Of a DNA stretch of 64,000 nucleotides, positions 4,180 to 36,700 are shown piece after piece. Positions within the stretch are counted from its first letter, which is position 1, and every line of letters starts with the position of its first letter. The translations under genes and the position numbers were made by a program. The stretch spans positions 14,073 through 78,072 of the forward strand of contig LVAJ01000028.1 in assembly GCA_001603005.1 (NCBI GenBank), read 5' to 3'. The DNA comes from Clostridiales bacterium Firm_04. GTDB lineage: Bacteria > Bacillota > Clostridia > Oscillospirales > Ruminococcaceae. A model generated the notes under the pieces. It ran no database searches. It saw nothing but the letters and a program-made list of their open reading frames with translations, and was not told where the DNA came from.

Positions 4180-4200
4180 GTATCCTGTTGTTCCGGTCAA

Positions 4201-7076: not shown

Positions 7077-7247
7077 GCTGATATGACCGGTGGCTGCGAA
7101 TGCAGCGCGCAGAAAGATACACCGTTCCTGATGCGAACAGCTTTTCGTCCATTTTCGCCCTAATCAACCAGAACAGTATGATTCTGCCAGCGGTGTATCT
7201 CTGTATCTACTGTATTTCTTCAACGAAATCAGTACACTCTTGGTTAC

Positions 7248-7276
7248 AGTATAGCACAGAAGGCACAAATTGTCAA
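7248..7276 (-). promoter_or_regulatory. Sigma-A type promoter (TTGACA-17-TATACT) for the CotH leader
   Basis: Minus-strand reading is TTGACAatttgtgccttctgtgcTATACT. Confidence 0.6.
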
Positions 7277-7323
7277 GAGTGCTTGAAAATCTTTGTTTGA
7301 TTTAACAATATGTGCAATGTGTG

Positions 7324-7366
7324 AAAAAGCCGCAGCCCCTCCGGATAAACGGCAGGGGACTGCGGC
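7324..7366 (-). terminator. Intrinsic terminator of the LRR-dockerin gene
   Basis: Minus strand shows GCCGCAGTCCCC...GGGGCTGCGGC followed by TTTTT, 33 nt after the stop at 7399. Confidence 0.75.
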
Positions 7367-7398
7367 ATTCTTTCGCAAATACACGCTTTTCGTGCGAA

Positions 7399-8538
7399 TT
7401 ACTTTGCAAGTGCCTGCTTTTTCAGAAGGCTGAGATCAGCGGACGTGAGTTCATTGTCCTTGTCCATGTCAGCGATCTTTGCCTGATCTTCCGTCAGCGA
7501 GCCGGTCGTCAGCAGATACTTCAGCAGCATAGCCGCATCTGCGTCATTGCATGCGCCGTCTGCGTTGATATCGCCGATGACCTCATCCTGCGGGATCACA
7601 TGCGACTCATCGAAGACCATTTTGGCTCTGGAAAGGAACGGATCAGCGGAATCCTTTTCGACGGCATTCCATGCAGACTGGCTGCCGTAGAATGTGATCG
7701 TTGCCGTGGAATTGTTGTCTGTGAATGCATAGCTGTCGATTTTTTTGAGATTGCCGGAGAGCTTGATATCGGTCAGCTTGTTGCACGCGGCGAAAACGCC
7801 GAATCCGAGGGAAGTGCAGCCGTTCAGCTCTGCGGATTTCAGGTTGTCGCAGTACCAGAAAACATTGTCGGTGATCTCGGTGACACTTGCCGGGAACGAA
7901 ACGGAAGTGATCTTGTCGTTCTTTGCGAATGCGCCCGAAGCGACATATTTGACGCCGGAAGGCACCTTGACATCGCCGGAGCAGGTTCTGCCGTCGATCA
8001 CGGCGCCGTTGACGATGACCAGCGGATCCTTTTTGCGCTGCGCTTCGAGCCACGGCGAATTGTCAAAGTTGTAGTCGCCGGTCTTCACGAGATGATCGGG
8101 GAAATTCACTTCTGTGAGCGATTTGCAATCCCTGAAGGATTCAAAAGCGATCTGTTCGAGACTGTCCGGAAATGTGACCGACTGAAGCTGGTCGCAGTTT
8201 GTGAACGCATACGGACCGATATAAGTGATCGTATCCGGAAGCGTCAGGGTTTTGATTTTTGCGTACTGACATGCATAGATGCCGATTTCCGTGACTGGCA
8301 GCCCGTCAATCGTTGCGGGGATCGTGAAATCCGAAGCCTCCCATGTGCAGCCGGAGATCACAATATGATCGGAATACTTGTAATAATTCAGATCACCTGA
8401 TTTGCCTACCGTATATTCCTCATCTGCGGAAACGGTCAGCGATGTGCCGAGCCATGTCTGAGCCGGAACTGCGGTCGTCAGCAGCGCCGCGGCGAGGAGC
8501 ACGGTTCCTCTGAAAAAATGCTTTTTTGATTTCATCAT
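7399..8538 (-). CDS. Secreted BspA-type leucine-rich-repeat protein with C-terminal dockerin
   Basis: ATGATG at 8538 follows AGGAGGG. Signal peptide MMKSKKHFFRGTVLLAAALL. Repeated units such as IGxYAFxxCxxLxSVTFPDS. C-terminal dockerin GDINADGACNDADAAML and ADMDKDNELTSADLSLL. Confidence 0.85.
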   Translation of the reverse strand: MMKSKKHFFRGTVLLAAALLTTAVPAQTWLGTSLTVSADEEYTVGKSGDLNYYKYSDHIVISGCTWEASDFTIPATIDGLPVTEIGIYACQYAKIKTLTLPDTITYIGPYAFTNCDQLQSVTFPDSLEQIAFESFRDCKSLTEVNFPDHLVKTGDYNFDNSPWLEAQRKKDPLVIVNGAVIDGRTCSGDVKVPSGVKYVASGAFAKNDKITSVSFPASVTEITDNVFWYCDNLKSAELNGCTSLGFGVFAACNKLTDIKLSGNLKKIDSYAFTDNNSTATITFYGSQSAWNAVEKDSADPFLSRAKMVFDESHVIPQDEVIGDINADGACNDADAAMLLKYLLTTGSLTEDQAKIADMDKDNELTSADLSLLKKQALAK

Positions 8539-16384: not shown

Positions 16385-16537
16385 TAGGCATTGTGAATGA
16401 ATTATCAAACATCCGAAATCAAGCTCTGTATGCAATGGACAATCCGAAAAAGCAGCGTCCGGCAGAACGCTGCAACGCTGAATAAACCCGCAAAAACGGC
16501 GCATACTCTAAGCACTTGCATTTCAGGAGGTACATCT

Positions 16538-17206
16538 ATGAAACAATCGTTCCGGATGCTGCTGCTTCTGCTGCTTGCGGGCGCGGCGGCATCTCTGTAT
16601 GACACGGCAGCGGCGAAGCAGGCGCTGGAACAGGGCGTCATCCGGCTGCATATTCTGGCTGACTCCGACCGTACATCCGACCAGACCGAAAAGCTGCTTG
16701 TACGCGATGCGGTCATGCAGCATTTGCAGGACTGGGTTCCGGCGGATGCGGATTATGATGCAGCATGTGACGCGATCCGGCGGTCTCTGCCTGCGATCCG
16801 GCAGACAGCGGAGCATGCGCTGCGGGATGCGGGCAGCAGCGATCCTGTTGCAGTCTCATTCGGGGAGACACCGTTTCCGGCGCGCAGCTACGGCGATTTC
16901 ACGCTGCCGGCAGGGGATTATCAGGCGTTGCGCATTTCGATCGGCAGCGGCAGCGGGCAGAACTGGTGGTGCATGATGTATCCGGCGCTCTGTATTCCCG
17001 CGGCAGCAAAAGCTGATCTGCCGCAGGATGACCGCGCACTGCTGCACGGTGCATTGCCGGAATCTGCCTGCGATATTGCGGAGCAGCCTGCAAAATATGA
17101 GGTGCGGCTCAAATGCGTGGACGCGCTCCATGCGGCAGTCCGGCTCCTGCGGGAGCAGCTCGCGGAAAAGCCCGCCTCTCCGGAGCAGAGAAGCGGGCAT
17201 CCGTAA
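16538..17206 (+). CDS. spoIIR: Stage II sporulation protein R
   Basis: ATG at 16538 follows AGGAGG. Signal/TM MKQSFRMLLLLLLAGAAA. Motifs VIRLHILADSDRTSDQTEKLLVRDAV and GSGQNWWCMMYPALCIP are SpoIIR hallmarks. Confidence 0.88.
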   Translation: MKQSFRMLLLLLLAGAAASLYDTAAAKQALEQGVIRLHILADSDRTSDQTEKLLVRDAVMQHLQDWVPADADYDAACDAIRRSLPAIRQTAEHALRDAGSSDPVAVSFGETPFPARSYGDFTLPAGDYQALRISIGSGSGQNWWCMMYPALCIPAAAKADLPQDDRALLHGALPESACDIAEQPAKYEVRLKCVDALHAAVRLLREQLAEKPASPEQRSGHP

Positions 17207-24032: not shown

Positions 24033-24425
24033 ATGGCAGAGAAAGCTGCTGAAAAAAAAGCACCCGCAAAGAAGACTGCTGAGAAGAAAGAAACCGCTGT
24101 AAAAAAGACTGCCGCAAAGAAAGCACCGGCAGCTGCGAAGACCGCTGAGAAGAAGGCGCCCGCTGCTGCAAAGACTGCTGAAAAGAAAGCACCTGCTGCA
24201 AAGAAGGCTGCGAAGAAGGCTGAGACCGTGATCAAAACGATCGTGCAGGTCGAAGGCAAGGATTATGATATCAGCGGCATCGCGGAGAAGCTGCTCAAGC
24301 AGTATAAATCCGTGCACAAGAGAAAGGTCGTTACGGAATTTGCAGTGTATGTCAAGCCGGAAGAAAATGCGGCTTACTTCACGATCAACGGCGAGGGCGG
24401 CGACGAGTTCAAGGTCGAGCTCTGA
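24033..24425 (+). CDS. Small Lys/Ala-rich (histone H1-like tail) protein with C-terminal globular domain
   Basis: 130 aa. N-terminal repeats AEKKAPAAAKT/AKKTAEKK, then VIKTIVQVEGKDYDISGIAEKLLKQYK...FTINGEGGDEFKVEL. Confidence 0.65.
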   Translation: MAEKAAEKKAPAKKTAEKKETAVKKTAAKKAPAAAKTAEKKAPAAAKTAEKKAPAAKKAAKKAETVIKTIVQVEGKDYDISGIAEKLLKQYKSVHKRKVVTEFAVYVKPEENAAYFTINGEGGDEFKVEL

Positions 24426-24461
24426 TACAGAAAAATTGTCCCGCAGTTCAAATGAACAAGA

Positions 24462-24495
24462 CAGCGCTCCGGTGAAAAGCCGGAGCGCTGTTTTT
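24462..24495 (+). terminator. Intrinsic terminator
   Basis: CAGCGCTCCGG-TGAAAAG-CCGGAGCGCTG followed by TTTTT. Confidence 0.85.
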
Positions 24496-24635: not shown

Positions 24636-24833
24636 TTAATGCTGCTGCGTGCCGGATCCTTTTTGTCCGGATTTCTTTTCAGAAGAAAGAAAGCCGAGGC
24701 ATGTCATGATGCAGCACAGCCAGATGAGGGTATCGCTGATCTCGTGTCCGGTGACGATCGAAGCGATCAGCGAGAAGCCCGATGCTGCGATTCCGGCAAT
24801 TGCGATGCCGCGGAGCAGACGCTTTTCATTCAT
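24636..24833 (-). CDS. 65-aa two-TM membrane protein, paralogue of the upstream gene
   Basis: MNEKRLLRGIAIAGIAASGFSLIASIVTGHEISDTLIWLCCIMTCLGFLSSEKK... The ATG at 24833 overlaps the upstream stop (ATGAATGA). Confidence 0.6.
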   Translation of the reverse strand: MNEKRLLRGIAIAGIAASGFSLIASIVTGHEISDTLIWLCCIMTCLGFLSSEKKSGQKGSGTQQH

Positions 24834-25041
24834 GGTGCTCATCCTTTCTGTTGTGATTATCATCCTGTTTCTTGTTCTGTGCGTTTCGCGTGAACAGGCA
24901 GCCGCTGCATGCGCAGATGCAGCCTGCAAGGATCAGATTGCTGCCGATGCTTTTGCCTTCGATGATGTTCAGGATCAGCGCGATCAGAGATGCGCAGATG
25001 CCGATGCTTGCAATAATGCGGTAGATACGTTCGCTTGTCAT
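24826..25041 (-). CDS. 71-aa two-TM membrane protein
   Basis: MTSERIYRIIASIGICASLIALILNIIEGKSIGSNLILAGCICACSGCLFTRN... The ATG overlaps the upstream stop (ATGA at 25038-25041). Confidence 0.6.
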   Translation of the reverse strand: MTSERIYRIIASIGICASLIALILNIIEGKSIGSNLILAGCICACSGCLFTRNAQNKKQDDNHNRKDEHHE

Positions 25042-25751
25042 GACAGATTCTCCTTATGATCGGTTTCAGTTTCTTTTGTATTCTGCTTGTTTCTGGATTT
25101 TTCGCCGGTGAAATCGAGGTTTGAGAACATCAGATAGTAGAGGATCGCAAGTCCGAAGTTCTTTGTGAGCATGCCCATGCACAGCGCCAGCGAAACAGCG
25201 ATCCAGAAGTTCGGGGAATTGAGCTTCACGGTCTTGACATCCTGCTCGACTTCCTTCTGCGTAAAGACGGTCTCGCCGATCTGCGCCTTCTGCACCCTGT
25301 TGGAGAGCAGCATCTGATCGCGCAGGATCCGGATGACTTCTTCTTCCAGCGCCGGCAGATCGTCCTCATGACCTGCCGCAGCTTCCAGAGCCGTCAGTTC
25401 ATAGTGCCGCTGCACCTTTTTGCCGATCATGCCGTCCTCGATCACAGTGATGATCGCCCAGCACACGCAGTTTTTATCCTTGCCGCGCTTTGCAAAGACA
25501 AAGCCCTTTGCGTCGAAAGCCTGTTCTGCAAGCGTCAGCAGGCGTTCTGCCTGTTCGGGGCTGTCCGCATTCGCGGTGAACATCGGCTTGCGGCTCTTTC
25601 TGCGGCTGATCTGCACAACGGAAGGCTCTCCGAAGATCTTTCCGGCTTCCTTTGCGATCCGCTTCGCCGCTTTGCGGTTTTCTTCTTTGTAATCGGAATG
25701 CTCTGCGGAATCAGCGCCGCAGTCCCGCATATCAATGATCTGGTTGTTCAT
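25038..25751 (-). CDS. 237-aa protein of unknown function: soluble N-terminal domain plus C-terminal TM hairpin
   Basis: ATG at 25751 follows GGAGG. There is a hydrophobic C-terminal segment FWIAVSLALCMGMLTKNFGLAILYYLMF. I recognise no family motif. Confidence 0.6.
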   Translation of the reverse strand: MNNQIIDMRDCGADSAEHSDYKEENRKAAKRIAKEAGKIFGEPSVVQISRRKSRKPMFTANADSPEQAERLLTLAEQAFDAKGFVFAKRGKDKNCVCWAIITVIEDGMIGKKVQRHYELTALEAAAGHEDDLPALEEEVIRILRDQMLLSNRVQKAQIGETVFTQKEVEQDVKTVKLNSPNFWIAVSLALCMGMLTKNFGLAILYYLMFSNLDFTGEKSRNKQNTKETETDHKENLS

Positions 25752-25816
25752 GGTGTTTGACCTCCGTTCCTGTGATGATTGGAGTATACCACAGATTTTC
25801 CGGAAATGGGGAAATT

Positions 25817-25847
25817 TGTCGCGAACGGTACAGTTCCTGTCGCAAAC
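25817..25847. promoter_or_regulatory. Candidate LytTR-regulator binding site: two 10-bp direct repeats with 21-bp period
   Basis: TGTCGCGAAC (25817-25826), an 11-nt spacer, then TGTCGCAAAC (25838-25847). On the minus strand they sit just upstream of a weak -35 and an extended -10 TGgTATACT (25791-25783). On the plus strand they sit 15 nt upstream of the TTGCAT -35. Confidence 0.45.
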
Positions 25848-25862
25848 TGCAAATTGCCGTAC

Positions 25863-25891
25863 TTGCATTTTTCGGGTATATATGGTATACT
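25863..25891 (+). promoter_or_regulatory. Sigma-A type promoter (TTGCAT-17-TATACT) of the LytTR RR / HK operon
   Basis: TTGCATttttcgggtatatatggTATACT, 32 nt upstream of the ATG at 25924. Confidence 0.6.
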
Positions 25892-25923
25892 TTCTTTAGA
25901 CAAAAAACAAACGGAGGTTTCAC

Positions 25924-26625
25924 ATGCGAATTGCAATTTGTGATGATGAGCGGAAATTTCGGGATGATTTCTGCCAAATCACCGACCGGCTCTACAAGAG
26001 CCTTGACATGCTGGTGGACAGCTTTTCGAGCGGACCTGCCCTGTTGAAGCAGTTCCGGCTGCGCGCCTACGATCTGGTTTTTCTGGATATCGAGATGCCG
26101 GAAATGGACGGCATCACGCTGGCAGAGGAGCTGCGGGCGCTCAGCGAGGAGGTCAGCATCGTTTTTCTGACCGGACATATCGAGTACGCGATCAAGGGCT
26201 ACGAGGTCAATGCGCTGCGCTATCTGACAAAGCCCGCGGACGCGGAACAGGTCAAAGCGGTGATCGACCGCGTGCTGCAAAAGCTCGAAAACGAAAAGCA
26301 GATCTGGATCCGGACAGATGAGGGCGACATGCGCCTGCGGCTGCCGGAGATCCTGTTCATCGAGTCGCAGAATCAGAATGTGGTCATCAACACCGCTTCG
26401 GACAGCTATTCCGTGCGCGGCAACATGAGCGACTACGAGGAACGCCTGACGCCGGAGGGATTCTTCCGCATCCACCGCGGCTATCTGGTCTCGCTGTCCA
26501 AGGTGCAGCGGATCTCCGGCAAGGAGGCGGTCATGGAGGACGGCACGGTGCTGCCGGTCAGCCGCAGCAAGGAGGCAAAGCTGCGCGAGGCGCTGTTTTC
26601 ATTTGTCAGGAGGGATGCGTTTTGA
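25924..26625 (+). CDS. LytR/AlgR (LytTR DNA-binding domain) response regulator
   Basis: Receiver domain MRIAICDDE...DLVFLDIEMPEMDGI. LytTR domain LPEILFIESQNQNVVINT...FFRIHRGYLVSLSKV. Confidence 0.9.
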   Translation: MRIAICDDERKFRDDFCQITDRLYKSLDMLVDSFSSGPALLKQFRLRAYDLVFLDIEMPEMDGITLAEELRALSEEVSIVFLTGHIEYAIKGYEVNALRYLTKPADAEQVKAVIDRVLQKLENEKQIWIRTDEGDMRLRLPEILFIESQNQNVVINTASDSYSVRGNMSDYEERLTPEGFFRIHRGYLVSLSKVQRISGKEAVMEDGTVLPVSRSKEAKLREALFSFVRRDAF

Positions 26626-28073
26626 TGATAGAACAGCTTATCTGGTCATTGATCTATTATGTTTTCAATTTTCTGGATTTTGTCCTGATCTTTTTGGGCA
26701 TAGCAATCCTGATGCACTGCTTCTGCGATGATGCGATCGTCGTATCGAAAAAGCGGACGCTGCTGTTCAGTGCAGGCAATCTGGTGGCTCTGATCGGCAT
26801 AACAGTTTCTCAAGTCTTCAGCGGGTACATATACGGATGTATAGTGGGCTTCATATCGAAGAAGCTTCAGCAGGAGATAGATTACGGCAATGCAATGGAT
26901 GTTTATTATATTCTGCAGTCAATTCCGATGTATCTGTGGATGACCTTTATGATCGCCTTTCGGAAAGGCTCCGGTGTGAAAAAAACAATTCTGCGCATGA
27001 TTGGCAGCTTTTGCATATTCCTGCTGTTTTCCACGGCATGCACCATTCCGAAAGAACTGATCCAATATGGTGTGAATGAAACAGGCATGTTCAGCAAGCA
27101 TTTATCCGAAGTATCATTATTTGATCTTGCGGTGCTTGAAATCTCACGCTGTGCGTTCCAGATTGTGCTCGTTCTGATTCTGTATTACGGTTTTTACCGG
27201 AAGGGCGTGGCACTTCGCATGCGCAAGGTGGATGTGGCAGCACTGATCGCCTATTACCTCATGCTGCGGGGGCTGACCGTACTGTTTCATCAGGTGGAAA
27301 AAGAGGAAATCCAGCTCGGCGGCGGCAATCCGGCGGTGCGGATCGTATTGATCGCAGCCATGCTCCTGCTGATCGTGATGATTCCGGTGCTGCTTGTGCG
27401 AACCCGCCTCAGCGCATCCTATAAGGAACTGAACGCATATCAGCAGAACTTTCTGGAAGCCGAGCTCAATGCGTCAAGGCAGTACAAGGCGGCGCAGGAG
27501 GATACCCGCGCATTCCGGCATGATGTGCAGAACAATCTGACCGCGATCGCAATGCTGATGCAGGAGGGCAGGATCGACGAGGCGGAGCGTTACCTCAACG
27601 ACATGCGCACAGAGGTCAATGCGCTGTCCCCGAAGGTCGTCAGCGGCGATGACATGGTCGATTCGCTGATCTCCTCGAAGCTTGCGAAAATGTCGGAGAA
27701 CGGCATCCGGTTCAGCATGGACGGCGTGATCGACGGCGGACTGAACTGGAAGCCTATGGATATCTGCACGGTGTTTGCGAATCTGCTGGACAACGCGATC
27801 GAAGCGGCGTCGCAGACAGAGGACGGCTTCATCCGGCTGGAATGCAAAAAGACCGGTCATCACCGCCTGATCCGCGCATCGAACAGCTGCAGGGAGAATG
27901 TGGACTGCGAATCGCTGCTCTCCGGCGAAAGCCACATCACCAGCAAAGAGGACAAGTCCCTGCACGGCTACGGCATCGGCAACATCCGCAAGACCGTGGA
28001 AAAATACGGCGGCATGATGCAGATCTCCTGTGCAGAGCGCGTGTTCACAATGGAGCTTCTGCTGGCAAAATGA
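26622..28073 (+). CDS. AgrC/ComD-like GHKL sensor histidine kinase (HPK10 type) with multi-TM sensor
   Basis: ~260-aa polytopic N-terminus, H-box FRHDVQNNL, N-box NLLDNAIEA and G-box HGYGIGNIRKTVEKYGG. The ATG overlaps the RR stop (ATGA). Confidence 0.85.
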   Translation: MMIEQLIWSLIYYVFNFLDFVLIFLGIAILMHCFCDDAIVVSKKRTLLFSAGNLVALIGITVSQVFSGYIYGCIVGFISKKLQQEIDYGNAMDVYYILQSIPMYLWMTFMIAFRKGSGVKKTILRMIGSFCIFLLFSTACTIPKELIQYGVNETGMFSKHLSEVSLFDLAVLEISRCAFQIVLVLILYYGFYRKGVALRMRKVDVAALIAYYLMLRGLTVLFHQVEKEEIQLGGGNPAVRIVLIAAMLLLIVMIPVLLVRTRLSASYKELNAYQQNFLEAELNASRQYKAAQEDTRAFRHDVQNNLTAIAMLMQEGRIDEAERYLNDMRTEVNALSPKVVSGDDMVDSLISSKLAKMSENGIRFSMDGVIDGGLNWKPMDICTVFANLLDNAIEAASQTEDGFIRLECKKTGHHRLIRASNSCRENVDCESLLSGESHITSKEDKSLHGYGIGNIRKTVEKYGGMMQISCAERVFTMELLLAK

Positions 28074-28102
28074 GCGCGGAAAATCCGCATTTGCTGCATA
28101 CG

Positions 28103-28154
28103 AAAAAATCAGCAGGCAGATCCCTTTTCCGGGGCATCTGCCTGCTGTGTTTTG
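28103..28154. terminator. Bidirectional terminator between convergent HK and anti-sigma genes
   Basis: AAAAAATCAGCAGGCAGAT-loop-ATCTGCCTGCTGTGTTTTG. Confidence 0.8.
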
Positions 28155-28163
28155 TGCTGTCGG

Positions 28164-30827
28164 TTATCGGATCTCTTTGATTACGTATCCGGTTTTGGGA
28201 TCGACAAAGAGGAAGCTTGTGCCGGTATCCGTTTCCGCCCGCAGTACGAGCGCGTAGGAGCGGAAACCGTTCCACTCAAAGCCGCAGAGATGAACATCTG
28301 TGCAGTTTTTCGGCATATAGATTTCATTATCCTGTGTGCCGCCGAGCCATTCGCGCACCGAGAAATTGAGCGGATCCATCTGAATATAGAAGAATCTTCC
28401 GTCCGGTCCGGCAGTGAGATTCGGTCTGACGAGCGGACGTTCTGTCAGCTGTACCGGCTGTCCGTTCACGCGGGTATAAAGCCCTTGATCCGCAGTGTAA
28501 TAGAATTCGGAATCCGCACTGACATAAGCATCTTTGATCTTTCCGTATGCGGTCGGATCCGGCAGGTCGTCGATCGGATCGCCGGGGCATGTTCTGACAT
28601 GGAGCTCCTGATTCATGATCGCGTACAGTTCTGTCTGCTCCGCGTTGCAGAAGTAGAGCTGAATGCCTGCCGGTGCCGGCTCATGGGAGAGGATTATGCC
28701 GGTCGAATCCGTCCACACTTCGATGGTGCTGATATTGCCAGCCTGATCTGTTCCCGTGATTGTGAGAAAATAGCGATCCTTGATATTCCAGATATAATCG
28801 CAGATATAATGCATGCCGTTATTTGCCGAATCATTCAGCGTGCGCAGATAATTCTGCACTTCCGCAGTGTTGAGCGGCGTGTAAATGCCGGCGTCGTCAA
28901 CTATGGTCAGATCCCTCGTGTAGACACATTTGCCGTCAGAGATGAACGGCTCAGAGGGTGCAGGCGCACCGTTGATGCGCGCAGGAACCGGTTCTTTTTC
29001 GCCGCCTGTCAGCGGGCAGCGGTACCATTGTCCGCCGCTGCCGTTGATATCATAGAAATAGAAATCGTTTTCATCGCGGTAAAGCGCAATGCTGCCGTGT
29101 TCATCCCAGTCCACGGGGAACAGGTCGCCGGTGCCGCCGAAGATATTTTCACTGCTGTTCTGCCAATCTGCGGAAGCAGTGGTAACGGCAGTCGTTGCGG
29201 CGGAAGTCTGCGCGGTCGTCTGCTGTGTGCCGGTGGTCTGCGCGGTCGCAGCTGCGGTCGTCACGGCAGGCTGAACGGTTGTCTGCTGTGCAGCGGTGGT
29301 CTGTGCGGTGTTTTCTGCATCTGCATCGGCGGAATCGGGCAGCGTGTAAAGATATGTTTTACCGGTACTGCGGTCGATCAGCGCATAGCCGAAGACAGGA
29401 TTCTGATAGGCAAAGCTGACCAGAACATAGTTCTCATCGACTGCGACGATCTCTGCATTGGAGAAGTCGCCCTTGACAGCCTTTTGCAGCGCGCTGCTGA
29501 ATGCATCGGTCATGCCGCTGCGGAAATCGCAGATCTCCTCGACATTTGTCCAGTCCGGATCTGCGCAGACAAGCTTGGCACCGCCGTCGGTCAGCGCATA
29601 GATCTTGCCGTGATCGGCAACGAAATGCTTGAAATCCGCGTTGTCAAGAATTACTTCTGCTTCCGCATCGCCCGGATTGGTCAATGCAAACGGTGCATCC
29701 TCTGCCTGTGCATCATCGGATGCAGACGGTGTGAGGCTGACCTTGCTGTAACGGAATTGATGCGCTGTGTCAGAATACTTCTCATAAGCCGAAGGATCGG
29801 GCTGGATATCGCTGCGTATCATCGTCTTGAAGTATTCCTGCTCTGTGACGTCTGTGAGATAATACAGGCAGCCGTTTGCGACCGTGTATGCAGAATACGA
29901 AGTGCCGATCGTGCCGAGCGACCTGATCTCGACCGGATCGGGCGTGACGCGGGAAATGCCGCCGTTTGATTCGACAATTGCAATGTCTTTTCCGTCCGTG
30001 ACGAATATCGGTGCAGAGAGCATGTCATACGGAATGGCTTTCTGCTCGCCGGTTTCCGGCTGATAAATGCTGGAAAAGATCTTATAATTGGGGCTGACGG
30101 TCTGTTCCGATGCGGTCGAGACCGAATAGGAGATGCTGTAATACCCGTCCGCGAGTTTCTGCACATCGCAGTAAATCGTATCTGCGATCTCTGTTCCGAC
30201 CTGCGTCTGCACCGCATCCATGTCGATCGTGTAGAACGGTGTCTCGCCGATATGATTGCCCTGCATGTCGATGCGGTAAAGCGCGCTGCCCTCTGCGCGG
30301 TAGAACTGCTCGCCGTCCCACAGCACATCGCTTGCCTTGCGCTCCTGCACGGTGCCGGTCTCATTGCCGCCGCGTGCGGTCTGATAGACAGCGTCCATGA
30401 AATAGACATTGTCATTGTCGTACATCAGTTTTGTGCTGCCGGCAGCATGGACCGTGCCCAGACCGCCGAGGAAATTCTGGACGGCTTTCGATTCGCTGTC
30501 AGAGATCTGCTGCCGATTCTGCTTTGCCTGCTGAACGATAAACCAGCCGCTTCCGACGAAGACGGCGCATGCGGCAGCTGCGACAAAGCCGGTTGTAATG
30601 CGCTGCCAGACTGATTGTTTGGTGCTCATACGGATTTTTTCCTTTCCGCCGCGGCGGTCCGGAGCAGCATTGCGGCGGCGCTGTTCGCTGCCGGCTGTTT
30701 TCGCTTCGGGAACCTGTTTGACTGCGGCTTTGCGGGATTCTCCGTGCTTGAGCCTGCTCGGTTTTGCGGCGTCAATGATCTGATCCGGAATGCCTTCCAT
30801 TGCGTCAAAAATGTCGATCGGCTTCAT
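28164..30827 (-). CDS. Putative anti-sigma factor: 887-aa single-pass membrane protein with large extracellular (beta-propeller-like) domains
   Basis: The ATG overlaps the sigma stop (ATGA at 30824-30827). N-terminus MKPIDIFDAMEGIPDQIIDAAKPS is paralogous to the 10169 protein. One TM segment (ITTGFVAAAACAVFVGSGWFIV) and an internal T/Q/A linker. Anti-sigma role is inferred from context. Confidence 0.55.
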   Translation of the reverse strand: MKPIDIFDAMEGIPDQIIDAAKPSRLKHGESRKAAVKQVPEAKTAGSEQRRRNAAPDRRGGKEKIRMSTKQSVWQRITTGFVAAAACAVFVGSGWFIVQQAKQNRQQISDSESKAVQNFLGGLGTVHAAGSTKLMYDNDNVYFMDAVYQTARGGNETGTVQERKASDVLWDGEQFYRAEGSALYRIDMQGNHIGETPFYTIDMDAVQTQVGTEIADTIYCDVQKLADGYYSISYSVSTASEQTVSPNYKIFSSIYQPETGEQKAIPYDMLSAPIFVTDGKDIAIVESNGGISRVTPDPVEIRSLGTIGTSYSAYTVANGCLYYLTDVTEQEYFKTMIRSDIQPDPSAYEKYSDTAHQFRYSKVSLTPSASDDAQAEDAPFALTNPGDAEAEVILDNADFKHFVADHGKIYALTDGGAKLVCADPDWTNVEEICDFRSGMTDAFSSALQKAVKGDFSNAEIVAVDENYVLVSFAYQNPVFGYALIDRSTGKTYLYTLPDSADADAENTAQTTAAQQTTVQPAVTTAAATAQTTGTQQTTAQTSAATTAVTTASADWQNSSENIFGGTGDLFPVDWDEHGSIALYRDENDFYFYDINGSGGQWYRCPLTGGEKEPVPARINGAPAPSEPFISDGKCVYTRDLTIVDDAGIYTPLNTAEVQNYLRTLNDSANNGMHYICDYIWNIKDRYFLTITGTDQAGNISTIEVWTDSTGIILSHEPAPAGIQLYFCNAEQTELYAIMNQELHVRTCPGDPIDDLPDPTAYGKIKDAYVSADSEFYYTADQGLYTRVNGQPVQLTERPLVRPNLTAGPDGRFFYIQMDPLNFSVREWLGGTQDNEIYMPKNCTDVHLCGFEWNGFRSYALVLRAETDTGTSFLFVDPKTGYVIKEIR

Positions 30828-31393
30828 AAGAATCCCTCCTGTTCAAGATGTTTCCGAAGCTTTTGGCGTGTGCGCATCAGTGTGACAGATACCTTGGATC
30901 TGGAAATGCCGAGGTCTTCCGCGATGTCTTCGATCGAGCAGACGTACCAGTAGCGCTGGACAAAGATCGTCTGCTGCTCGGGCTTCAATGTCTCCAGAAA
31001 TTCGGTGATCGTTTCCTGAAGTGCCATTCTGTCGATGTGCTGTTCCACCGTGTCAGGATCGGTGCAGCAGTCATGCAGTTCGTCGAGCACGAGCGTTGTC
31101 TCTCCGCCGCCGCGTTTCTGTGCGTGCTTCATCTTATAGCGCTTTGTCGCGACGGATCGTGCGACAGATGCGAAATACGCATACACATTCTCCGGATTTG
31201 CCGGCGGGATGTGATCCCACAGACGCATCAGAACATCATTGACGCATTCCTCTGCGTCCTGTACGCTGCCGAGGATATTATGCGCAATGGTATAGAGATA
31301 TCCGCCGAATTTGCGCTGTGTCTCGGCGACCGCCTGTTCATTCCGGTCGAAGTACAGCCCTATGAGTTCCTTGTCATCCAACGTGATCAACAT
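30824..31393 (-). CDS. ECF-like sigma-70 family sigma factor, paralogue of 9606-10172
   Basis: LGSVQDAEECVNDVLMRLWDHIPPANPE..., KRGGGE, and region 4 QQTIFVQRYWYVCSIEDIAEDLGISRSKVSVTLMRTRQKL. Start is uncertain: the ATG at 31393 has a very short RBS spacing. Confidence 0.82.
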   Translation of the reverse strand: MLITLDDKELIGLYFDRNEQAVAETQRKFGGYLYTIAHNILGSVQDAEECVNDVLMRLWDHIPPANPENVYAYFASVARSVATKRYKMKHAQKRGGGETTLVLDELHDCCTDPDTVEQHIDRMALQETITEFLETLKPEQQTIFVQRYWYVCSIEDIAEDLGISRSKVSVTLMRTRQKLRKHLEQEGFL

Positions 31394-31428
31394 CCTTTCG
31401 GTTCGGTTTTGAAGCGGCTTCAAATTGA

Positions 31429-31457
31429 GAGACACCAAACACACATGCCGCATTACA
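31429..31457 (-). promoter_or_regulatory. Candidate ECF-type promoter (TGTAAT-18-GTCTC) with conserved upstream A/T tract
   Basis: Minus strand reads CAAAAAAATTTTTTCGGAAAAAGTGTAAT-N18-GTCTC. It is near-identical in its upstream part to 9524-9575. Confidence 0.5.
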
Positions 31458-31543: not shown

Positions 31544-32170
31544 TTACGCTTTGACCTCTGTATAATAGTAGACGGCAAGCTGGGTGCGGTCGCGCAGAGA
31601 AAGCTTGTCGAGCAGCTCGCTCACATAATTGCGGACAGTGCCCTCTCCGAGGCAGAGCCGCGCCGCGATCTCCTTGTTGCTGAGCCCTTCCGCGACCAGT
31701 TCCATGATCTCGCGCTCCTTTTCGCTGATGCCGTGTGCTGCATAATCATAGGTTTCCGGCTGCTTCATCATCTCCGGCAGCCGCGAAATGATCGTCTCGC
31801 CGAAGACGCTCTGTCCGCGCATGACGGCTTCCAGCGCCGGTGCGATGCCCTCGAAATCCTGCTTGAGAATGTAGCCCTTTGCACCCATGCGCAATGCCTT
31901 GACGATGTATTCATCATCGGAAAAGGTCGTCAGATACAGCAGCTTTGCGTCCGGCGATGCTTTGAGGATCTGCTCGCCGGCTTCCAGACCGGTCATGCCG
32001 TCCATGCGAATGTCCATCAGCATGACATCCGGCTTTTCTGCTTCATAGAGCCGGATCGCCTCTGCACCGCTGCTGCCCATTGCGGCGACGGTGATCCGTC
32101 CGGTCGCTTCGAGGATCGTTTTCAGCGAGATCGCGACCAGTTTGTCATCATCAATCACGACGATTTTCAT
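31544..32170 (-). CDS. NarL/FixJ (LuxR HTH) family response regulator
   Basis: MKIVVIDDDKLV...DVMLMDIRMDGMTGLE. HTH region ISEKEREIMELVAEGLSNKEIAARLCLGEGTVRNYVSELLDKL. Confidence 0.9.
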   Translation of the reverse strand: MKIVVIDDDKLVAISLKTILEATGRITVAAMGSSGAEAIRLYEAEKPDVMLMDIRMDGMTGLEAGEQILKASPDAKLLYLTTFSDDEYIVKALRMGAKGYILKQDFEGIAPALEAVMRGQSVFGETIISRLPEMMKQPETYDYAAHGISEKEREIMELVAEGLSNKEIAARLCLGEGTVRNYVSELLDKLSLRDRTQLAVYYYTEVKA

Positions 32171-33243
32171 AAATTCTCCTTCTGTACAGATGCGAAAATG
32201 CGGAATCCGTTTTCCGAGGGCGTAAAGCTGATCTGCCCGCCGATGCCTTCCGCTCTGTCCTTCATATTTTTGAGCCCGATGCCGGTTTCCGTGATCGCGC
32301 TGCAATGCCCGTTGTCTTCAATCACGAGCTGATAGAATGCGGGATGCTCGCGCAGAACAATGAGAATGCGGTCGCCGTCCGAATGCCGGACTGCATTGGA
32401 AAGTCCCTCTTTGATGATGCCCGCCATGCACAGCTTGACGCTGCCGGGCGCGCGGTCGCTGATGTCGTAATCCAGCCGGACGGTGAAGCGATCCTGTACC
32501 GCCGCGATGCTGTCCTCGATCACCTTTTTCAGGTCGATCGAATCATCATGCAGCGTATGCACGCTTTCACGCATGCTGGTCATTGCCGTGTCCAGCGTAT
32601 CCTTCAAGCCGTTGAGCGGCTCCTTCATCTGTTCATCCTGATTGATGACCGTCAGCGCACCCGCCTGCAGGAGTGCGCGCGTCAGCATATGCCCGACGTT
32701 GTCATGGATCTCGCGGGCGATGCGGTTGCGCTCCTTCATCGTCGCGAGGCGGATCTCCGTATCCTGCATTTCTGCCATTTTCAGATTCTGGTCGGTCAGC
32801 AGCAGATTCCGCTCCGTGACGGTATCACGCAGCGCGGTCAGCCTGCCGACCTGACCGGTGAGCACCGAAATGCGCCGGTAGAGCAGGAGCGCTGCCGCAA
32901 TGCCGACCGCAATTGTCAGATACTGCGCGGTGAGCAGATTCCGCCCTGCCATGCCCAGTGCGGGAACTGCCGGCAGGACGAGCCACCATTTTTTCAGCGT
33001 TAGCGCGTCATAGAGCAGCAGCGGCAGTGCGCAGAGCGCGAGCGGGAACAGCAGTCCGGCAGCCGCGCCTGCCGCGATCAGTCCCGCGGAGACTGCGCTG
33101 TACTTCTGCGGGATCAGGATGACGGCAGCCGACAGACAGAAATACATCAGCAGCAGCGCCACCGGAGCAGTCAGGCTGTTTGCCGTAAAAAAGCCGATCA
33201 TGCAGATCAGCGCAACGACCAGTTTTTCCGACAGTCCGTCCAT
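32167..33243 (-). CDS. Sensor histidine kinase, HisKA_3 (DesK/LiaS/YvfT-like) type
   Basis: Four or five N-terminal TM segments, H-box ERNRIAREIHDNVGHMLT and a HATPase region (GLSNAVRHS, GIGLKNMKDRAEGIGG). ATG at 33243 follows GAGGGGGGGA. Confidence 0.88.
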   Translation of the reverse strand: MDGLSEKLVVALICMIGFFTANSLTAPVALLLMYFCLSAAVILIPQKYSAVSAGLIAAGAAAGLLFPLALCALPLLLYDALTLKKWWLVLPAVPALGMAGRNLLTAQYLTIAVGIAAALLLYRRISVLTGQVGRLTALRDTVTERNLLLTDQNLKMAEMQDTEIRLATMKERNRIAREIHDNVGHMLTRALLQAGALTVINQDEQMKEPLNGLKDTLDTAMTSMRESVHTLHDDSIDLKKVIEDSIAAVQDRFTVRLDYDISDRAPGSVKLCMAGIIKEGLSNAVRHSDGDRILIVLREHPAFYQLVIEDNGHCSAITETGIGLKNMKDRAEGIGGQISFTPSENGFRIFASVQKENL

Positions 33244-33300
33244 GTGCTCCCCCCCCTCTGCATTTGCAAATTTGTTCGTCAGAACCGTTTTACCGGTACT

Positions 33301-33329
33301 ATTATAACATGGACGCGCCGAATTTGCAA
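33301..33329 (-). promoter_or_regulatory. Sigma-A type promoter (TTGCAA-17-TATAAT) of the HK/RR operon
   Basis: Minus-strand reading is TTGCAAattcggcgcgtccatgtTATAAT. Confidence 0.55.
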
Positions 33330-33346
33330 CCCTGATGCGCGCGGAT

Positions 33347-33411
33347 ATGACATTTGTCATGTCACAAACTGATTCCGGACACTGGTAAATGACATTTGTT
33401 TCTGCTATAAT
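33347..33411 (+). promoter_or_regulatory. Repeated ATGACATTTGT boxes overlapping an activator-type promoter of the ABC operon
   Basis: ATGACATTTGT occurs at 33347-33357 (part of the near-palindrome TGACATTTGTCA) and again at 33389-33399, 42 bp apart. The second copy fills the spacer upstream of TATAAT (33406-33411), where the -35 is poor. Confidence 0.4.
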
Positions 33412-33455
33412 CATATCAGAACAAAATAAGCCCGTTCTGCGAAAGGAGTATCAAC

Positions 33456-34406
33456 ATGGCAGAAACAGTTGTCAAGCTCGAAAATATGGTGAAGCGTTAC
33501 GGCGATCTGATCGCGCTCGATCATTTCAGTCTGGAAATACAGGAGGGCGAGATCTTCGGTCTGCTCGGCCCGAACGGCTCCGGCAAGACCACAACGATCA
33601 ACTGCCTGCTGTCCCTGCTTGCGTATGACAAGGGCGAGATCGAGATCTTCGGGAAAAAGATGTCCCCGACTGCCTATGACATCAAGCAGCAGATCGGCAT
33701 TATCATGCAGGACGTTGCGGTGTTCGACGAGCTGACGGTCTATGAGAATATCGACTATTTCTGCGGACTGTACATTCCGGACCGGAAAAAGCGGAAGCAG
33801 TATGTCGAGGACGCGATCCGGTTTGTGGGACTGGAGGATTTTGTGAAGTTCCGTCCGAAGAAGCTTTCCGGCGGTCTGCTCCGGAGACTGAATATCGCGT
33901 GCGGCATTGCCCACAAGCCGCGGCTGATCATTCTGGATGAGCCGACCGTTGCGGTCGATCCGCAGAGCCGGAACAGGATCCTCGAAGGCATCGCGGAGCT
34001 GAACCGAAACGGCGCGACTGTCATCTACACCTCGCATTACATGGAGGAGGTGGAGCAGCTCTGCACGCATATCGTCATCATGGACAAGGGCAGAAAGATC
34101 GCAGAGGGCACAAAGGATGAGCTCAAGCGCATGATCAAGAATACCGAGACCGTCACCATTGAGATCCTGGAGCTGCCCGATGCGGTGCGCAGGGAGATCG
34201 AAGATCTGCCGCATGTCTATGAGACTGCCTATCAGGACGACCGCTTTACGGTACGCTGCTCCGGCGGCAAGCACAATCTCATCCGGATTCTGGACGTTCT
34301 GCGCAAGCATGACCTGAGTGTCGGACGGGTGTATACGGAGCTGCCGACGCTGAATGACGTTTTCCTCGAAATCACCGGAAAATCGCTGCGGGACAAGGAG
34401 GACTGA
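33456..34406 (+). CDS. ABC transporter ATP-binding protein
   Basis: Walker A GPNGSGKTT, signature LSGGLLRRL and Walker B LIILDEPT. Confidence 0.92.
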   Translation: MAETVVKLENMVKRYGDLIALDHFSLEIQEGEIFGLLGPNGSGKTTTINCLLSLLAYDKGEIEIFGKKMSPTAYDIKQQIGIIMQDVAVFDELTVYENIDYFCGLYIPDRKKRKQYVEDAIRFVGLEDFVKFRPKKLSGGLLRRLNIACGIAHKPRLIILDEPTVAVDPQSRNRILEGIAELNRNGATVIYTSHYMEEVEQLCTHIVIMDKGRKIAEGTKDELKRMIKNTETVTIEILELPDAVRREIEDLPHVYETAYQDDRFTVRCSGGKHNLIRILDVLRKHDLSVGRVYTELPTLNDVFLEITGKSLRDKED

Positions 34407-34407
34407 C

Positions 34408-35538
34408 ATGTTTCTGCACAATCTGAAATATGAACTGTTTTCGACACTGCGCGTCAAGGATCTGATCATCTGGCTGATCCTGTTTCCGATGTTTCTCGGC
34501 ACGGTGTTCAAGATCGCATTCGGCAGCATCTACGAAAAGGTGGATTCGTTTTCGGCGATCCCGTGCGCCGTTGTGGAGATGCAGGCAGATCCCGCGCTGC
34601 ATCAGGTGCTCGATGCTGTCTCGGATGGTGCGGACGCGCTGCTGAAGGTGCAGTATGTCAGCGCGGACGAGGCGGATGCGCTGCTGCGTGACGATCAGGT
34701 CAAGGGCATCCTGAAAGCGGACGGCAGACTGTCGCTTGACGTCACCGGAGAGGGCTTGGAGCAGACGATGCTCCGCAGCTTTGCAGAGCAGTACAATGCA
34801 AACCGCGCCGTCATCATGGAATGCGCTGCCGATGATCCCGCAGCAGTTCCCGCGGTGGTCGAAAGCATGTACGCCGAATGGAAGCCTGTCACCGATCTGC
34901 CGCTGACGGACGGCAATTCCGACTATACAGCGGTCTATTTCACGAATCTGCTGGCAATGGTCGCGATGTTCGGCTCGATCACGGGGCTGCACATCACGAT
35001 CCAGAATCAGGGCAATCTCTCGAAGCTCGGCGCGCGGAAATGCTGCTCGCCGACGCCGAAATCCGTCAGTATCGGTGCAAGTCTGCTCGGCAGCATGCTC
35101 GTGCAGGCGGCCTGCATGGCGATCGCCGTCAGCTTTCTGCATTTCGTGCTGAAGGTGGATCTCGGCAGCAGGCTCGGCATGATCTATCTGACCGCGATGC
35201 TCGGCGGCATACTCGGTCTGGCATTCGGATTCTGCATCGGCTCGATCGGCAGATTCCAGACCGGTACCAAGAACGGCATCTGCTTTGCTGTTTCGATGTT
35301 CTGCTGCTTTTGCAGCGGTCTGATGGTCGGCAACATGAAAAGCATCATCGACCGCATCGCGCCGTGGTTCAACCGGATCAATCCGACCGCACTCATCACC
35401 GACAGCCTCTACTATCTGAATATCGACAGCGATTACCGCCGCTGGAGCCGCGCAGCGCTCACGATGACCGCGATGACCGTTGTGCTGGTCGTGCTCGGAT
35501 TCGTCATGTCAAGGAGAAAGAAATATGCAAGTCTTTAA
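34408..35538 (+). CDS. ABC-2 type transporter permease
   Basis: The ATG lies 2 nt after the ATPase stop. Architecture is an N-terminal TM, a ~150-aa extracytoplasmic loop, then 5 TM segments. Confidence 0.75.
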   Translation: MFLHNLKYELFSTLRVKDLIIWLILFPMFLGTVFKIAFGSIYEKVDSFSAIPCAVVEMQADPALHQVLDAVSDGADALLKVQYVSADEADALLRDDQVKGILKADGRLSLDVTGEGLEQTMLRSFAEQYNANRAVIMECAADDPAAVPAVVESMYAEWKPVTDLPLTDGNSDYTAVYFTNLLAMVAMFGSITGLHITIQNQGNLSKLGARKCCSPTPKSVSIGASLLGSMLVQAACMAIAVSFLHFVLKVDLGSRLGMIYLTAMLGGILGLAFGFCIGSIGRFQTGTKNGICFAVSMFCCFCSGLMVGNMKSIIDRIAPWFNRINPTALITDSLYYLNIDSDYRRWSRAALTMTAMTVVLVVLGFVMSRRKKYASL

Positions 35539-36700
35539 TGCGTTCACCAAGGTCATGCGGGCAAAGCTGCCTGCCGGCATCATTTATATCGTGATCTTTC
35601 TGGTGATTACGGTGCTCATGACCAATTCCGCCGCCAATAACGGCATGCAGGTCTTTCAGGGCAAAAAGATCGGCGTTGTGGTCTATGATGAGGACGACAC
35701 GCCGGAAAGCCGCGCACTCAAAGCATATATCGGCAAAAGACAGAATTTGAAAGAACTGGAACAGGATATCGACCGCATCAAGGATACGGTCTACATGGGC
35801 TGGGATTCGGAGATCAGCTATGTCATGGCGATCAAAAAGGGCTATGCCGAAAAACTGCATGCGGGCGATTATAACGATCTGTTCACGAATTACTACATGC
35901 ACGAGAATTATGAGAATGTCATGATGGAGCAGCTCCTGACCGAATATCTGAACACGGTCAGCGCCTATCAGTCCGGCGGAAAGCCGCTTTCCGAAGCGAT
36001 CAGCCGGACGGAATCCGTCCTGACGCAGGAAACTGCGGTCACGGTCAGGCACTTTGATGCAGATGCGTCCGGTTCGGATCTGCCGGCACATTTCAGCGAT
36101 TATTTCCGGTATCTGCCGTATATTCTGCTGTCCGTGCTGATCGAGGTGCTGTGTCCGGTGCTGCTGGCTTTGGGACAGAAAAAGCTGCGCTACCGCACGA
36201 ACTGTTCCAGCATCCGACCGACCGCATACTCTTTGCAGATCATTCTCGGCAGTGCGCTGCTTGTGGCAGGAGTCTGGCTGGTGTTTATGGCTGCCGGCGC
36301 TGTGATGTTCGGCGCGGTCTCCGGCAGGGCGTGGCTTGCGGTGCTCAACAGCTTTTTGTTCGCGATGATCTCGGCAGCGATCGCCGTTCTGATCGCAAGC
36401 TTTCAGCCGCCGGAGCTGGCTGTCAATCTTATGGCGCAGCTGCTCGGCGTCGGCATGAGCTTTCTGTGCGGTATTTTCGTGCCGATGGACTGGCTCAGCG
36501 ACGGCGTTGCGGCAGCCGCAAGATTTCTGCCGGCATACTGGTATGTGCAGGCGAACGATCTGATCTGCGGCAACAAGCCGTTTGACGGGCATCAGGTCTC
36601 TGTATGCCTGCTGATCGAGCTGGGATTTGCAGCCGCATGTGCGCTGCTGGCAATGGTGATCCGCCGCAGCAAGTATGCAAGCGCCGAGCAGATGACATGA
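35525..36700 (+). CDS. ABC-2 type transporter permease (second subunit)
   Basis: Overlaps the previous gene by 14 nt and has the same architecture (TM, large loop, multi-TM C-terminal part). Confidence 0.75.
   Translation: MQVFNAFTKVMRAKLPAGIIYIVIFLVITVLMTNSAANNGMQVFQGKKIGVVVYDEDDTPESRALKAYIGKRQNLKELEQDIDRIKDTVYMGWDSEISYVMAIKKGYAEKLHAGDYNDLFTNYYMHENYENVMMEQLLTEYLNTVSAYQSGGKPLSEAISRTESVLTQETAVTVRHFDADASGSDLPAHFSDYFRYLPYILLSVLIEVLCPVLLALGQKKLRYRTNCSSIRPTAYSLQIILGSALLVAGVWLVFMAAGAVMFGAVSGRAWLAVLNSFLFAMISAAIAVLIASFQPPELAVNLMAQLLGVGMSFLCGIFVPMDWLSDGVAAAARFLPAYWYVQANDLICGNKPFDGHQVSVCLLIELGFAAACALLAMVIRRSKYASAEQMT

Follow-up and report, generated by a model that had tools for sequence, protein, structure and literature searches.

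The locus described here raises the question of what a two-component system of the quorum-sensing type controls, and what it senses, when no gene for a peptide signal lies beside it. It occupies positions 24,636 to 28,073 of a 64,000-nucleotide (64 kb) stretch of contig LVAJ01000028.1 from Clostridiales bacterium Firm_04 (GCA_001603005.1), hereafter called the window. A gene for a LytTR-type response regulator and a gene for an AgrC-type histidine kinase are transcribed on the plus strand and diverge from a minus-strand operon of three genes, which we call A, B, and C. With moderate confidence, we read the locus as a VirSR/Agr-type signaling system whose signal is not linked to it and whose output is a new membrane module. 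Related contigs are designated by L numbers.

The regulator gene (25924 to 26625, plus strand) encodes a protein of 233 amino acids (aa) with a receiver domain and a LytTR domain (Pfam Response_reg, 6e-22, and LytTR, 1e-21). By inspection, it has DD at residues 7 and 8 and the FxRxHR DNA-binding motif in the form FFRIHRG; the Asp in LVFLDIEMP is the likely phospho-acceptor. The kinase gene (26625 to 28073, plus strand) encodes a 482-aa AgrC-type (HPK10-like) histidine kinase of the GHKL class (Pfam HATPase_c_5, 5e-23). Codons 1 to 265 specify a polytopic sensor, with about six to seven transmembrane (TM) segments in residues 1 to 260 in a hydropathy scan and no large extracytoplasmic domain, and the H-box of the dimerization and histidine phosphotransfer (DHp) domain reads FRHDVQNNL. 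The only relatives of the kinase among PDB sequences are AgrC kinase modules (6e52, 9e-7), and the protein has no Pfam match to the 5TM-5TMR_LYT or His_kinase domains. NCBIfam gave the pair just weak, sub-threshold matches to LytR, BtsR, AgrA, and AgrC. Because its score against the NCBIfam AgrC equivalog, 40 bits, is far under the cutoff of 500, we consider the kinase to be of the AgrC type but not an AgrC orthologue. An earlier reading of this DNA, made from the letters alone and called here the sequence-only reading, had proposed a LytTR regulator with an AgrC-like GHKL kinase of 483 aa; the Pfam domains and the AgrC-only PDB relatives bear this out, with a small change in length. The ATG at 26625, which overlaps the regulator stop codon by 1 nucleotide (nt), is a likelier start than the TTG at 26622 because the same start is annotated on related contigs.

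The regulator-kinase operon has a putative near-consensus sigma-70-type promoter (25863 to 25891, plus strand; TTGCAT, 17 nt, TGgTATACT), the elements of which are kept in L001, L011, and L018. A probable intrinsic terminator (28110 to 28156, plus strand), read directly, has a 12-bp stem (CAGCAGGCAGAT...ATCTGCCTGCTG) with a long loop, followed by TGTTTTGTG. A 36-aa open reading frame (ORF) at 28070 to 28180 (MSAENPHLLHTKKSAGRSLFRGICLLCFVLSVIGSL), which has an ATGA overlap with the kinase stop codon, was considered as a hidden pheromone gene. We rejected it because it is a translation of the terminator hairpin and does not change between sensor alleles; it is identical in the two alleles compared, is absent in L035, and on two other contigs differs by T11M or by EN to DH. 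It is very probably not a gene.

The intergenic region between the regulator and A is exactly 172 bp (25752 to 25923), and the genes beyond it are as tightly coupled as the sequence-only reading had described. A (25038 to 25751, minus strand, 237 aa) has a GGAGG ribosome-binding site (RBS) upstream; B (24826 to 25041, minus strand, 71 aa) has an ATGA overlap with A; and C (24636 to 24833, minus strand, 65 aa, starting MNEKRLL) has a ATGAATGA overlap with B. A strong intrinsic terminator (24461 to 24491, minus strand) with a 12-bp stem, nine GC pairs, and a T-rich tail ends the operon. It faces a convergent gene for a DUF6465 protein (24036 to 24425), which has a Lys/Ala-rich N-terminal half with AEKKAPAAAKT repeats and whose annotated length varies among related contigs (138 versus 164 aa).

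B and C had been described as a paralogous pair of two-TM proteins, and they are 36% identical, with one invariant Cys in an alignment that included the two related genes of L001. B has two TM helices, the second of them Cys-rich (GCICACSGC), and a charged C-terminal tail; in its paralogue C, the second-helix motif is LCCIMTCLG. The topology of both looks N-in/C-in, with a short outer loop, the invariant Cys in helix 2, and charged tails. Because A, B, and C are under purifying selection between strains and recur in L001, we take them to be real genes. The ratio of nonsynonymous to synonymous divergence (omega) between conspecific contigs is 0.135 for A, 0.26 for B, and 0 for C, which has 0 nonsynonymous and 4 synonymous differences between strains. 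In L001, A-B-C is present with its stop/start overlaps at 35 to 56% protein identity.

No significant match to A, B, or C was found in Pfam, NCBIfam, PHROGs, or PADLOC, in agreement with the earlier impression that the trio belongs to no recognized family. A profile of the A family had no match among PDB sequences, and patterns of A-family peptides gave no confirmed relative in GTDB genomes or JGI metagenomes. A full HMMER pass through 1.84 billion proteins yielded 11 representatives of the A family, and word-indexed searches yielded seven database clusters in all for B/C and likewise a handful of clusters for A. We therefore regard A as the founder of a rare, unannotated family.

The intergenic region contains two 12-nt LytTR-type boxes on the minus strand. 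The proximal box (CCGTTCGCGACA, 25817 to 25828) lies beside a nonconsensus −35 and stops 28 nt before the −10 element that serves A-B-C; the distal box (CAGTTTGCGACA, 25838 to 25849) is a direct repeat of the proximal one with a 21-bp period. Comparing the upstream regions of A-family genes in related contigs gave CCGTTCRCGACA as the consensus of the two boxes. The apparent −10 element (25783 to 25788, minus strand) is TATACT with an upstream TG (TGnTATACT). The −35 position reads CCCCAT, and because this is a poor −35, the promoter is suggested to depend on an activator. The 31-nt composite box motif occurs once in the window and was found 0 times in 100 shuffles, even with three mismatches. 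When the diverged intergenic DNA of seven loci (the window, L001, L006, L011, L013, L018, and L014) was aligned, most of the invariant columns fell in the two boxes and the −10 element. The same boxes are present in L035 with a 20-bp period.

When public genomes and metagenomes were scanned with the exact pattern, the complete promoter turned up at two more sites. One of these is L018, a contig with an 81%-identical regulator. The other is L014, the Oscillospiraceae metagenome-assembled genome (MAG) RGIG7982 from water-buffalo rumen (1298 to 3248 and 5069 to 5740), in which the box pair and −10 element are upstream of a 75-aa ORF and a 458-aa dockerin protein. About 3.7 kb away is a kinase remnant that has the catalytic domain only and is 75% identical to the kinase of the window. 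The regulon of this type of regulator may include cellulosome components. In L015, a Planctomycetota MAG (3123 to 5132), the gene for a stand-alone LytTR protein of 150 aa stops 7 nt short of the same box pair (CCGCTCACGACAG-N8-ACCGTTCACGACA), and a beta-lactamase-family gene is next; boxes of this type seem to be recognized by LytTR domains across phyla. Several high-GC box matches in Streptomyces and soil metagenomes are not linked to LytTR genes and probably reflect chance or unrelated repeats.

The arrangement resembles published LytTR sites. Those of VirR are two imperfect direct repeats of 12 bp that precede the promoter (PMC2688746), the regulators of LytTR regulatory systems (LRS) bind repeats ∼12 bp apart just upstream of the −35 (PMC6193735), and AgrA recognizes direct repeats located ahead of promoters whose spacing is suboptimal (PMC4227749). 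Because the box motif is rare, conserved, and placed next to the promoter, and because its placement fits this published geometry, we strongly infer that activation of A-B-C depends on the regulator. The LytTR control of the operon that the sequence-only reading had proposed thus gains the support of conserved direct repeats at an AgrA/VirR/LRS-type position.

The trio and the pair had also been treated as a unit of five genes. This unit is not the one that is conserved: only the A family stays with the regulator and the kinase, and B/C and an M48 metalloprotease come and go. The kinase-regulator pair is divergent from A-B-C in the window, from A-B-C-M48 in L001, and from A alone, then a terminator, in L011. 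On other contigs, the regulator is divergent from A-M48 (L006/L007, where a terminator follows, and L013). The A-M48 genes of L012 are as in L013, with the upstream flank rearranged and no regulator, and those of L034 have an upstream flank unrelated to the regulator. In L035 to L037, the boxes, three small membrane proteins, an A protein with a duplicated domain, the regulator, and the kinase follow one another on one strand; in L035 (2382 to 6609), the small membrane proteins have 59, 69, and 96 aa, and the A homologue has 329 aa with its soluble domain duplicated. The regulator is 73 to 88% identical in six diverged loci that also have the box pair.

The close clade of A comprises seven lineages. 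It adjoins the regulator and kinase in six diverged lineages (the kinase being cut off by contig ends in two), and where the upstream flank of A is intact in diverged loci, A adjoins this two-component system. Two lineages have B/C and a third has a distant B/C-like protein, and the M48 protease follows A or A-B-C in four. This protease (L001, L006, L012, and L034) is HtpX-like, with an HEMAH motif and two N-terminal TM helices, a layout that suggests a cytoplasmic catalytic domain; tblastn found no M48 homologue in the window. Three lineages have the motif IIDMRD(C/S)G at the N-terminus of A, whereas in L035 it is carried by the 96-aa B/C-like protein. In a distant clade of A (∼23% identity), the operons also encode an XRE regulator and a DUF3169 membrane protein, and there is neither a LytTR gene nor boxes; in L008 and L010, where the distant A-like gene is accompanied by XRE and DUF3169, an AraC gene is divergent. 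Judged by gene order, this two-component system has A as its constant partner, and the B/C mini-proteins and M48 are interchangeable accessories. The sample names of the other metagenome assemblies suggest ruminant-gut studies, as read from the names alone.

The sensor half of the kinase is set apart from the rest of the locus by its variability. A look-up of the exact regulator protein returned 22 contigs, and among contigs with a regulator that is identical or, once, different by one residue, there are at least three deeply diverged sensor alleles. Over 11 kb, the window and L024 have 92 to 100% nucleotide identity except at 26700 to 27420 (plus strand), where it is 69 to 89%. This hypervariable island covers the TM sensor domain; the regulator, kinase domain, and A-B-C adjoining it are 96 to 100% identical in nucleotide sequence. 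Between conspecific contigs, the synonymous (dS) and nonsynonymous (dN) divergences of the sensor domain are 0.40 and 0.144, compared to 0.058 and 0.004 for the catalytic half of the kinase, 0.025 and 0 for the regulator, 0.067 and 0.009 for A, 0.07 and 0.018 for B, and 0.09 and 0 for C. The third allele (L002, L031, and L033) has 48% amino acid identity over the first 44 residues of the kinase, with a breakpoint exactly at the kinase start; the DNA upstream is ∼99% identical.

Because dS and dN are both raised, the sensor alleles appear to be old lineages kept side by side, as are the agr specificity groups, and the variation does not look like a recent sweep. Across the three sensor alleles, A, B, and C are 97 to 100% identical, and they are therefore unlikely to be the cognate, co-varying signal. 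By analogy with VirSR and its separate agrBD genes, the variable signal probably has its gene at another site in the genome, or else other strains supply it. Some variability is also seen beyond the kinase, at 28164 to 31453, where the gene for an extracytoplasmic function (ECF)-type sigma factor (30824 to 31453, minus strand) has a 4-nt overlap with a downstream gene for an 887-aa protein without a Pfam match. The latter gene is 92 to 96% identical between strains in places, somewhat more diverged than most of its neighbors, and may code for an anti-sigma factor or surface protein.

We screened the window for signal genes by comparing ATG-initiated, nonoverlapping ORFs of ≥70 aa across the 64 kb, together with the flanking genes, with Pfam. 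Neither AgrB (PF04647) nor an ATP-binding cassette (ABC) exporter with a C39 peptidase was found among these ORFs, and no double-glycine leader was found among the ORFs of 18 to 90 aa. These results extend to the window the absence of linked peptide-signal and export genes that had been reported for the surroundings of the pair. The sole ABC system nearby (33.4 to 36.7 kb) is of the DrrA/ABC-2 type and is paired with a NarL/HisKA_3 two-component system: at 31544 to 36700, the minus strand carries the genes of a HisKA_3 kinase and a NarL/GerE regulator, and diverging from these are the genes of a DrrA-type ABC ATPase and two ABC-2 permeases, a layout typical of an antimicrobial-peptide or bacitracin-type detoxification module. 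For VirS, the proposed signal is an AgrD-derived product of separate agrBD genes (PMC2688746, PMC4877802). Among clostridial VirSR-type systems, a lack of linked peptide genes is ordinary (PMC2688746, PMC4877802).

Protein A has a variable N-terminus with IIDMRD, an alpha/beta domain at about residues 45 to 165, and a two-helix membrane hairpin at residues 180 to 212 followed by a charged tail. An AlphaFold2 model from three sequences was unusable (predicted local distance difference test [pLDDT] of 45), but with 18 family sequences, the core (residues 45 to 150) reached a pLDDT of ∼75 to 85, with a mean of 64 for the model. Almost all of the named top Foldseek matches of this model in PDB and BFVD, libraries independent of each other, have the GNAT fold, with E values of 7e-5 to 4e-4 and TM-scores per target of 0.4 to 0.55. 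At the sequence level, A has no Pfam GNAT match, and hhalign gave a probability of 0.04 against a GNAT protein of the window. The domain models as a GNAT-like fold. Because the loop at motif A of GNAT proteins, which binds the coenzyme A (CoA) pyrophosphate (Q/RxxGxG/A, beta4-alpha3), is replaced by the acidic EAAAG(H/Y)ED, A probably lacks classical acetyl-CoA chemistry. A has no signal peptide, and Lys-rich regions flank the C-terminal hairpin; together, these features suggest that the domain is cytoplasmic and is tethered to the membrane at its inner face. The predicted fold of residues 45 to 165 resembles that of GNAT-fold proteins such as the tRNA-acetylating toxins AtaT and TacT and the aminoglycoside acetyltransferases; unlike them, A has no sequence similarity to the family, lacks Q/RxxGxG/A, and is membrane-anchored by its C-terminal hairpin.

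We propose that the regulator-kinase operon is probably constitutive, transcribed from its own near-consensus promoter, and that the sensor in the membrane most likely responds to an extracellular cue that differs among strains. Our best guess for this cue is a peptide pheromone whose gene lies elsewhere in the genome and whose producer is either the cell itself or a competitor. The phosphorylated regulator would bind as a dimer to the two 12-nt repeats 21 bp apart, beside the weak −35, and this binding would activate A-B-C. A-B-C would be the output of the system, not the generator of its signal, with A as the constant component, its GNAT-like domain held at the inner membrane face by the C-terminal helical hairpin. 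B and C would be lineage-specific accessories, and in relatives the HtpX-like M48 protein would be a second accessory. Once the signal is present, the module would remodel or protect the membrane or feed back on the kinase. In this scheme we infer the binding of the regulator and the activation that follows, the peptide ligand, and the topology and role of A, B, and C.

Three features of AgrCA/VirSR-type systems are present: a regulator with receiver and LytTR domains, a polytopic HATPase_c_5 kinase, and paired repeats with a period of ∼20 to 22 bp that overlap the −35 or lie just upstream of it. VirSR of Clostridium perfringens, like RgaR of C. difficile, belongs to the Clostridia and combines a polytopic AgrC-like kinase with a LytTR regulator that has the FxRxHR motif; its target sites are likewise two imperfect 12-bp direct repeats upstream of a promoter, and its signal genes, agrBD, are outside the virSR locus. 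The VirR boxes presumably read CCAGTTNNNCAC, compared to CCGTTCRCGACA here. Unlike in VirSR, the direct target here would be a divergent operon of uncharacterized membrane proteins rather than toxins or regulatory RNAs, and the sensor has allelic hypervariability, of which we found no description for VirS.

The staphylococcal agr system has the closest kinase module, AgrC, and also a LytTR regulator with direct repeats in a divergent intergenic region and a sharply bounded hypervariable sensor half next to a conserved kinase half and regulator. However, no AgrB/AgrD genes adjoin the pair or are among the screened ORFs of the window, the hypervariable block stops at the kinase start instead of running into neighboring genes, and the divergent transcript encodes membrane proteins, not RNAIII. 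Because AgrB and AgrD are missing, the locus is not a canonical agrBDCA operon. It shares with LRS such as HdrRM and BrsRM a LytTR regulator, repeats ∼12 bp apart upstream of a −35, and small membrane proteins beside the regulator (PMC6193735). LRS regulators, however, have neither a receiver domain nor a kinase, and because both are present here, the locus is not an LRS; in addition, LRS membrane inhibitors are cotranscribed downstream of the regulator, and A, B, and C have no similarity to them. Nor is it a LytSR-LrgAB/CidAB system, because the sensor is of the wrong type and there is no LrgA or LrgB match. The gene that follows A (L006, L012, and L034) or A-B-C (L001) resembles the HtpX/M48 membrane metalloproteases in having an M48 domain. 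What is new is the target module (two unannotated families and a recurrent M48), the box motif, and the presence of sensor alleles within a species in a dockerin-rich, spore-forming organism.

Other explanations of A-B-C deserve to be weighed. It is unlikely that the locus is an immunity or self-protection module under an eavesdropping kinase, in which a bacteriocin-inducing or antimicrobial peptide of a competitor would induce B/C, M48, and A and so safeguard the membrane. In its favor, class II bacteriocin and immunity loci are classically under the control of HPK10-LytTR pairs, and components typical of immunity include small membrane proteins with two helices as well as membrane metalloproteases. 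The diversity of the sensor fits an arms race with variable peptides, and the accessory genes vary by lineage, as immunity cargo often does. However, the ORFs screened in the window yielded no bacteriocin gene, double-glycine peptide, or C39-ABC exporter; A, B, and C match neither an immunity family nor Abi/CPBP; and most of A, the constant component, is in the cytoplasm, an unusual place for an immunity protein. The sequence-only reading had also allowed that the trio itself generates the signal. In such a noncanonical biosynthesis cassette, B/C would be AgrD-like precursors, A an AgrB-like processing or cyclizing factor, and M48, where present, a protease that trims the leader as MroQ does in Staphylococcus aureus; the kinase would sense the product, closing an autoinduction loop. 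MroQ is a precedent for a membrane metalloprotease in the maturation of an autoinducing peptide (AIP) (PMC9388083), but M48 is not in the window. B and C have an AgrD-like three-part layout (N-terminal helix, Cys segment, charged tail) with one invariant Cys, yet their second hydrophobic segments look like ordinary TM helices, and B/C are absent from L006, L011, and L012, where a terminator comes straight after A or M48. The close clade of A keeps Cys95, His116, and Glu118 invariant, but neither Cys of its NCVCW motif is invariant across the family, and the distant clade aligned without a residue at His116. The order of L035 is agrBDCA-like: behind the boxes, and all on one strand, the small proteins and A come first, and then the regulator and kinase. 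In the agr, com, and blp systems, signal and sensor co-vary, whereas here three deeply diverged sensor alleles stand alongside nearly identical A, B, and C proteins. With B/C missing from several loci and A-B-C not co-varying with the sensor alleles, we consider this explanation very unlikely.

A might instead be a feedback connector, comparable to MgrB for PhoQ, SaePQ for SaeS, or LiaF for LiaS: a membrane-anchored protein that the regulator induces and that resets the kinase through its conserved cytoplasmic part, with B, C, and M48 tuning the stability of A. We think this quite unlikely. That A is the one gene staying beside the regulator and kinase across lineages speaks for it, as does the presence of distant A-like genes in operons with other regulators and membrane proteins (XRE and DUF3169, with AraC divergent in L008 and L010); the IDMRD motif, moreover, moves between A and the B/C-like protein in L035, as a docking motif might. 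But because A does not co-vary with the sensor alleles, any contact would be limited to the conserved half of the kinase. The dockerin cargo of L014, unrelated to A and behind the same promoter, argues that the regulator has true effector targets. B and C also have the general shape of class II holins, being 65 to 71 aa long, paralogous, and two-helix, probably N-in/C-in, with charged C-terminal tails, although such a topology is not diagnostic. LytTR regulators control lrgAB and cidAB, and B/C could by analogy be a holin/antiholin-like pair that controls permeabilization, lysis, or protein release. This is highly improbable: A, B, and C have no PHROG or Pfam match to a holin (at E ≤ 1), LrgA, or LrgB, the kinase is of the AgrC and not the LytS type (it lacks the 5TM-Lyt and His_kinase domains), the operon has no lysin or cargo gene, and B/C are dispensable in several lineages. 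A pair of Met codons at the start of C (M1/M4, MSTMNEK) was considered as a lambda-like holin dual start and rejected, since the upstream ATG has no usable RBS spacing and the pair is not kept in L001. There is also only a slight chance that A, B/C, and M48 form a new membrane pathway of Gram-positive anaerobes under autoinducing LytTR control, in which the GNAT-like A would acylate the TM Cys of the mini-proteins and M48 would process them, with IDMRD as a docking element and a lipidated or processed signal or effector peptide as the product.

Several points also weigh against the reading that we prefer, that of a VirSR/Agr-type system with an unlinked signal and a membrane output module. Binding of the regulator and induction of A-B-C are deduced from sequence, and the peptide ligand is a best guess that rests on the allelic island of the sensor, whose hypervariability could have causes other than pherotypes. 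The 64 kb window cannot tell whether the genome has an agrBD-like locus, and the one-strand order of L035 resembles an autoinduced agrBDCA operon. The GNAT-like fold of A comes from a model with a mean pLDDT of 64 and TM-scores of 0.4 to 0.55, without sequence-level support. Finally, most of the related contigs are short metagenome fragments, and because of this, few independent lineages can be counted.

Elsewhere in the window, dockerin-bearing or BspA-LRR surface proteins are encoded at 4201 to 8538, 36773 to 39712, and 41320 to 46968; they comprise CotH and Cthe_2159 proteins with dockerin, BspA-LRR with dockerin, RTX repeats with dockerin, and a 1,882-aa BspA-LRR giant. Together with SpoIIR (16397 to 17206), these proteins point to a cellulosome-producing, spore-forming member of the Oscillospiraceae. 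A type I-C CRISPR-Cas system (53456 to 61689, minus strand) encodes Cas2, Cas1, Cas4, Cas7, Csd1/Cas8c, and Cas3, and its short CRISPR array (53456 to 53698) has three to four copies of the repeat ATTTCAATCCACGCCCCCTGTGCAGGGGGCGAC.

Signaling of the Agr/VirSR type is well studied in pathogens but almost unexplored in the fiber-degrading Oscillospiraceae of the rumen and gut. For one system of this kind, the locus supplies a defined cis-element and a defined operon as its direct target, and it links the A family and the B/C mini-proteins, with M48 in some lineages, to an Agr/VirSR-type pathway. The box motif can be used for mapping the regulon in genomes, and the sensor alleles can be used for finding a co-varying signal gene. 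The strain-level sensor types imply pheromone-group structure or peptide warfare in these communities, and the dockerin target of L014 hints that cell-cell signaling may control components of the cellulosome.

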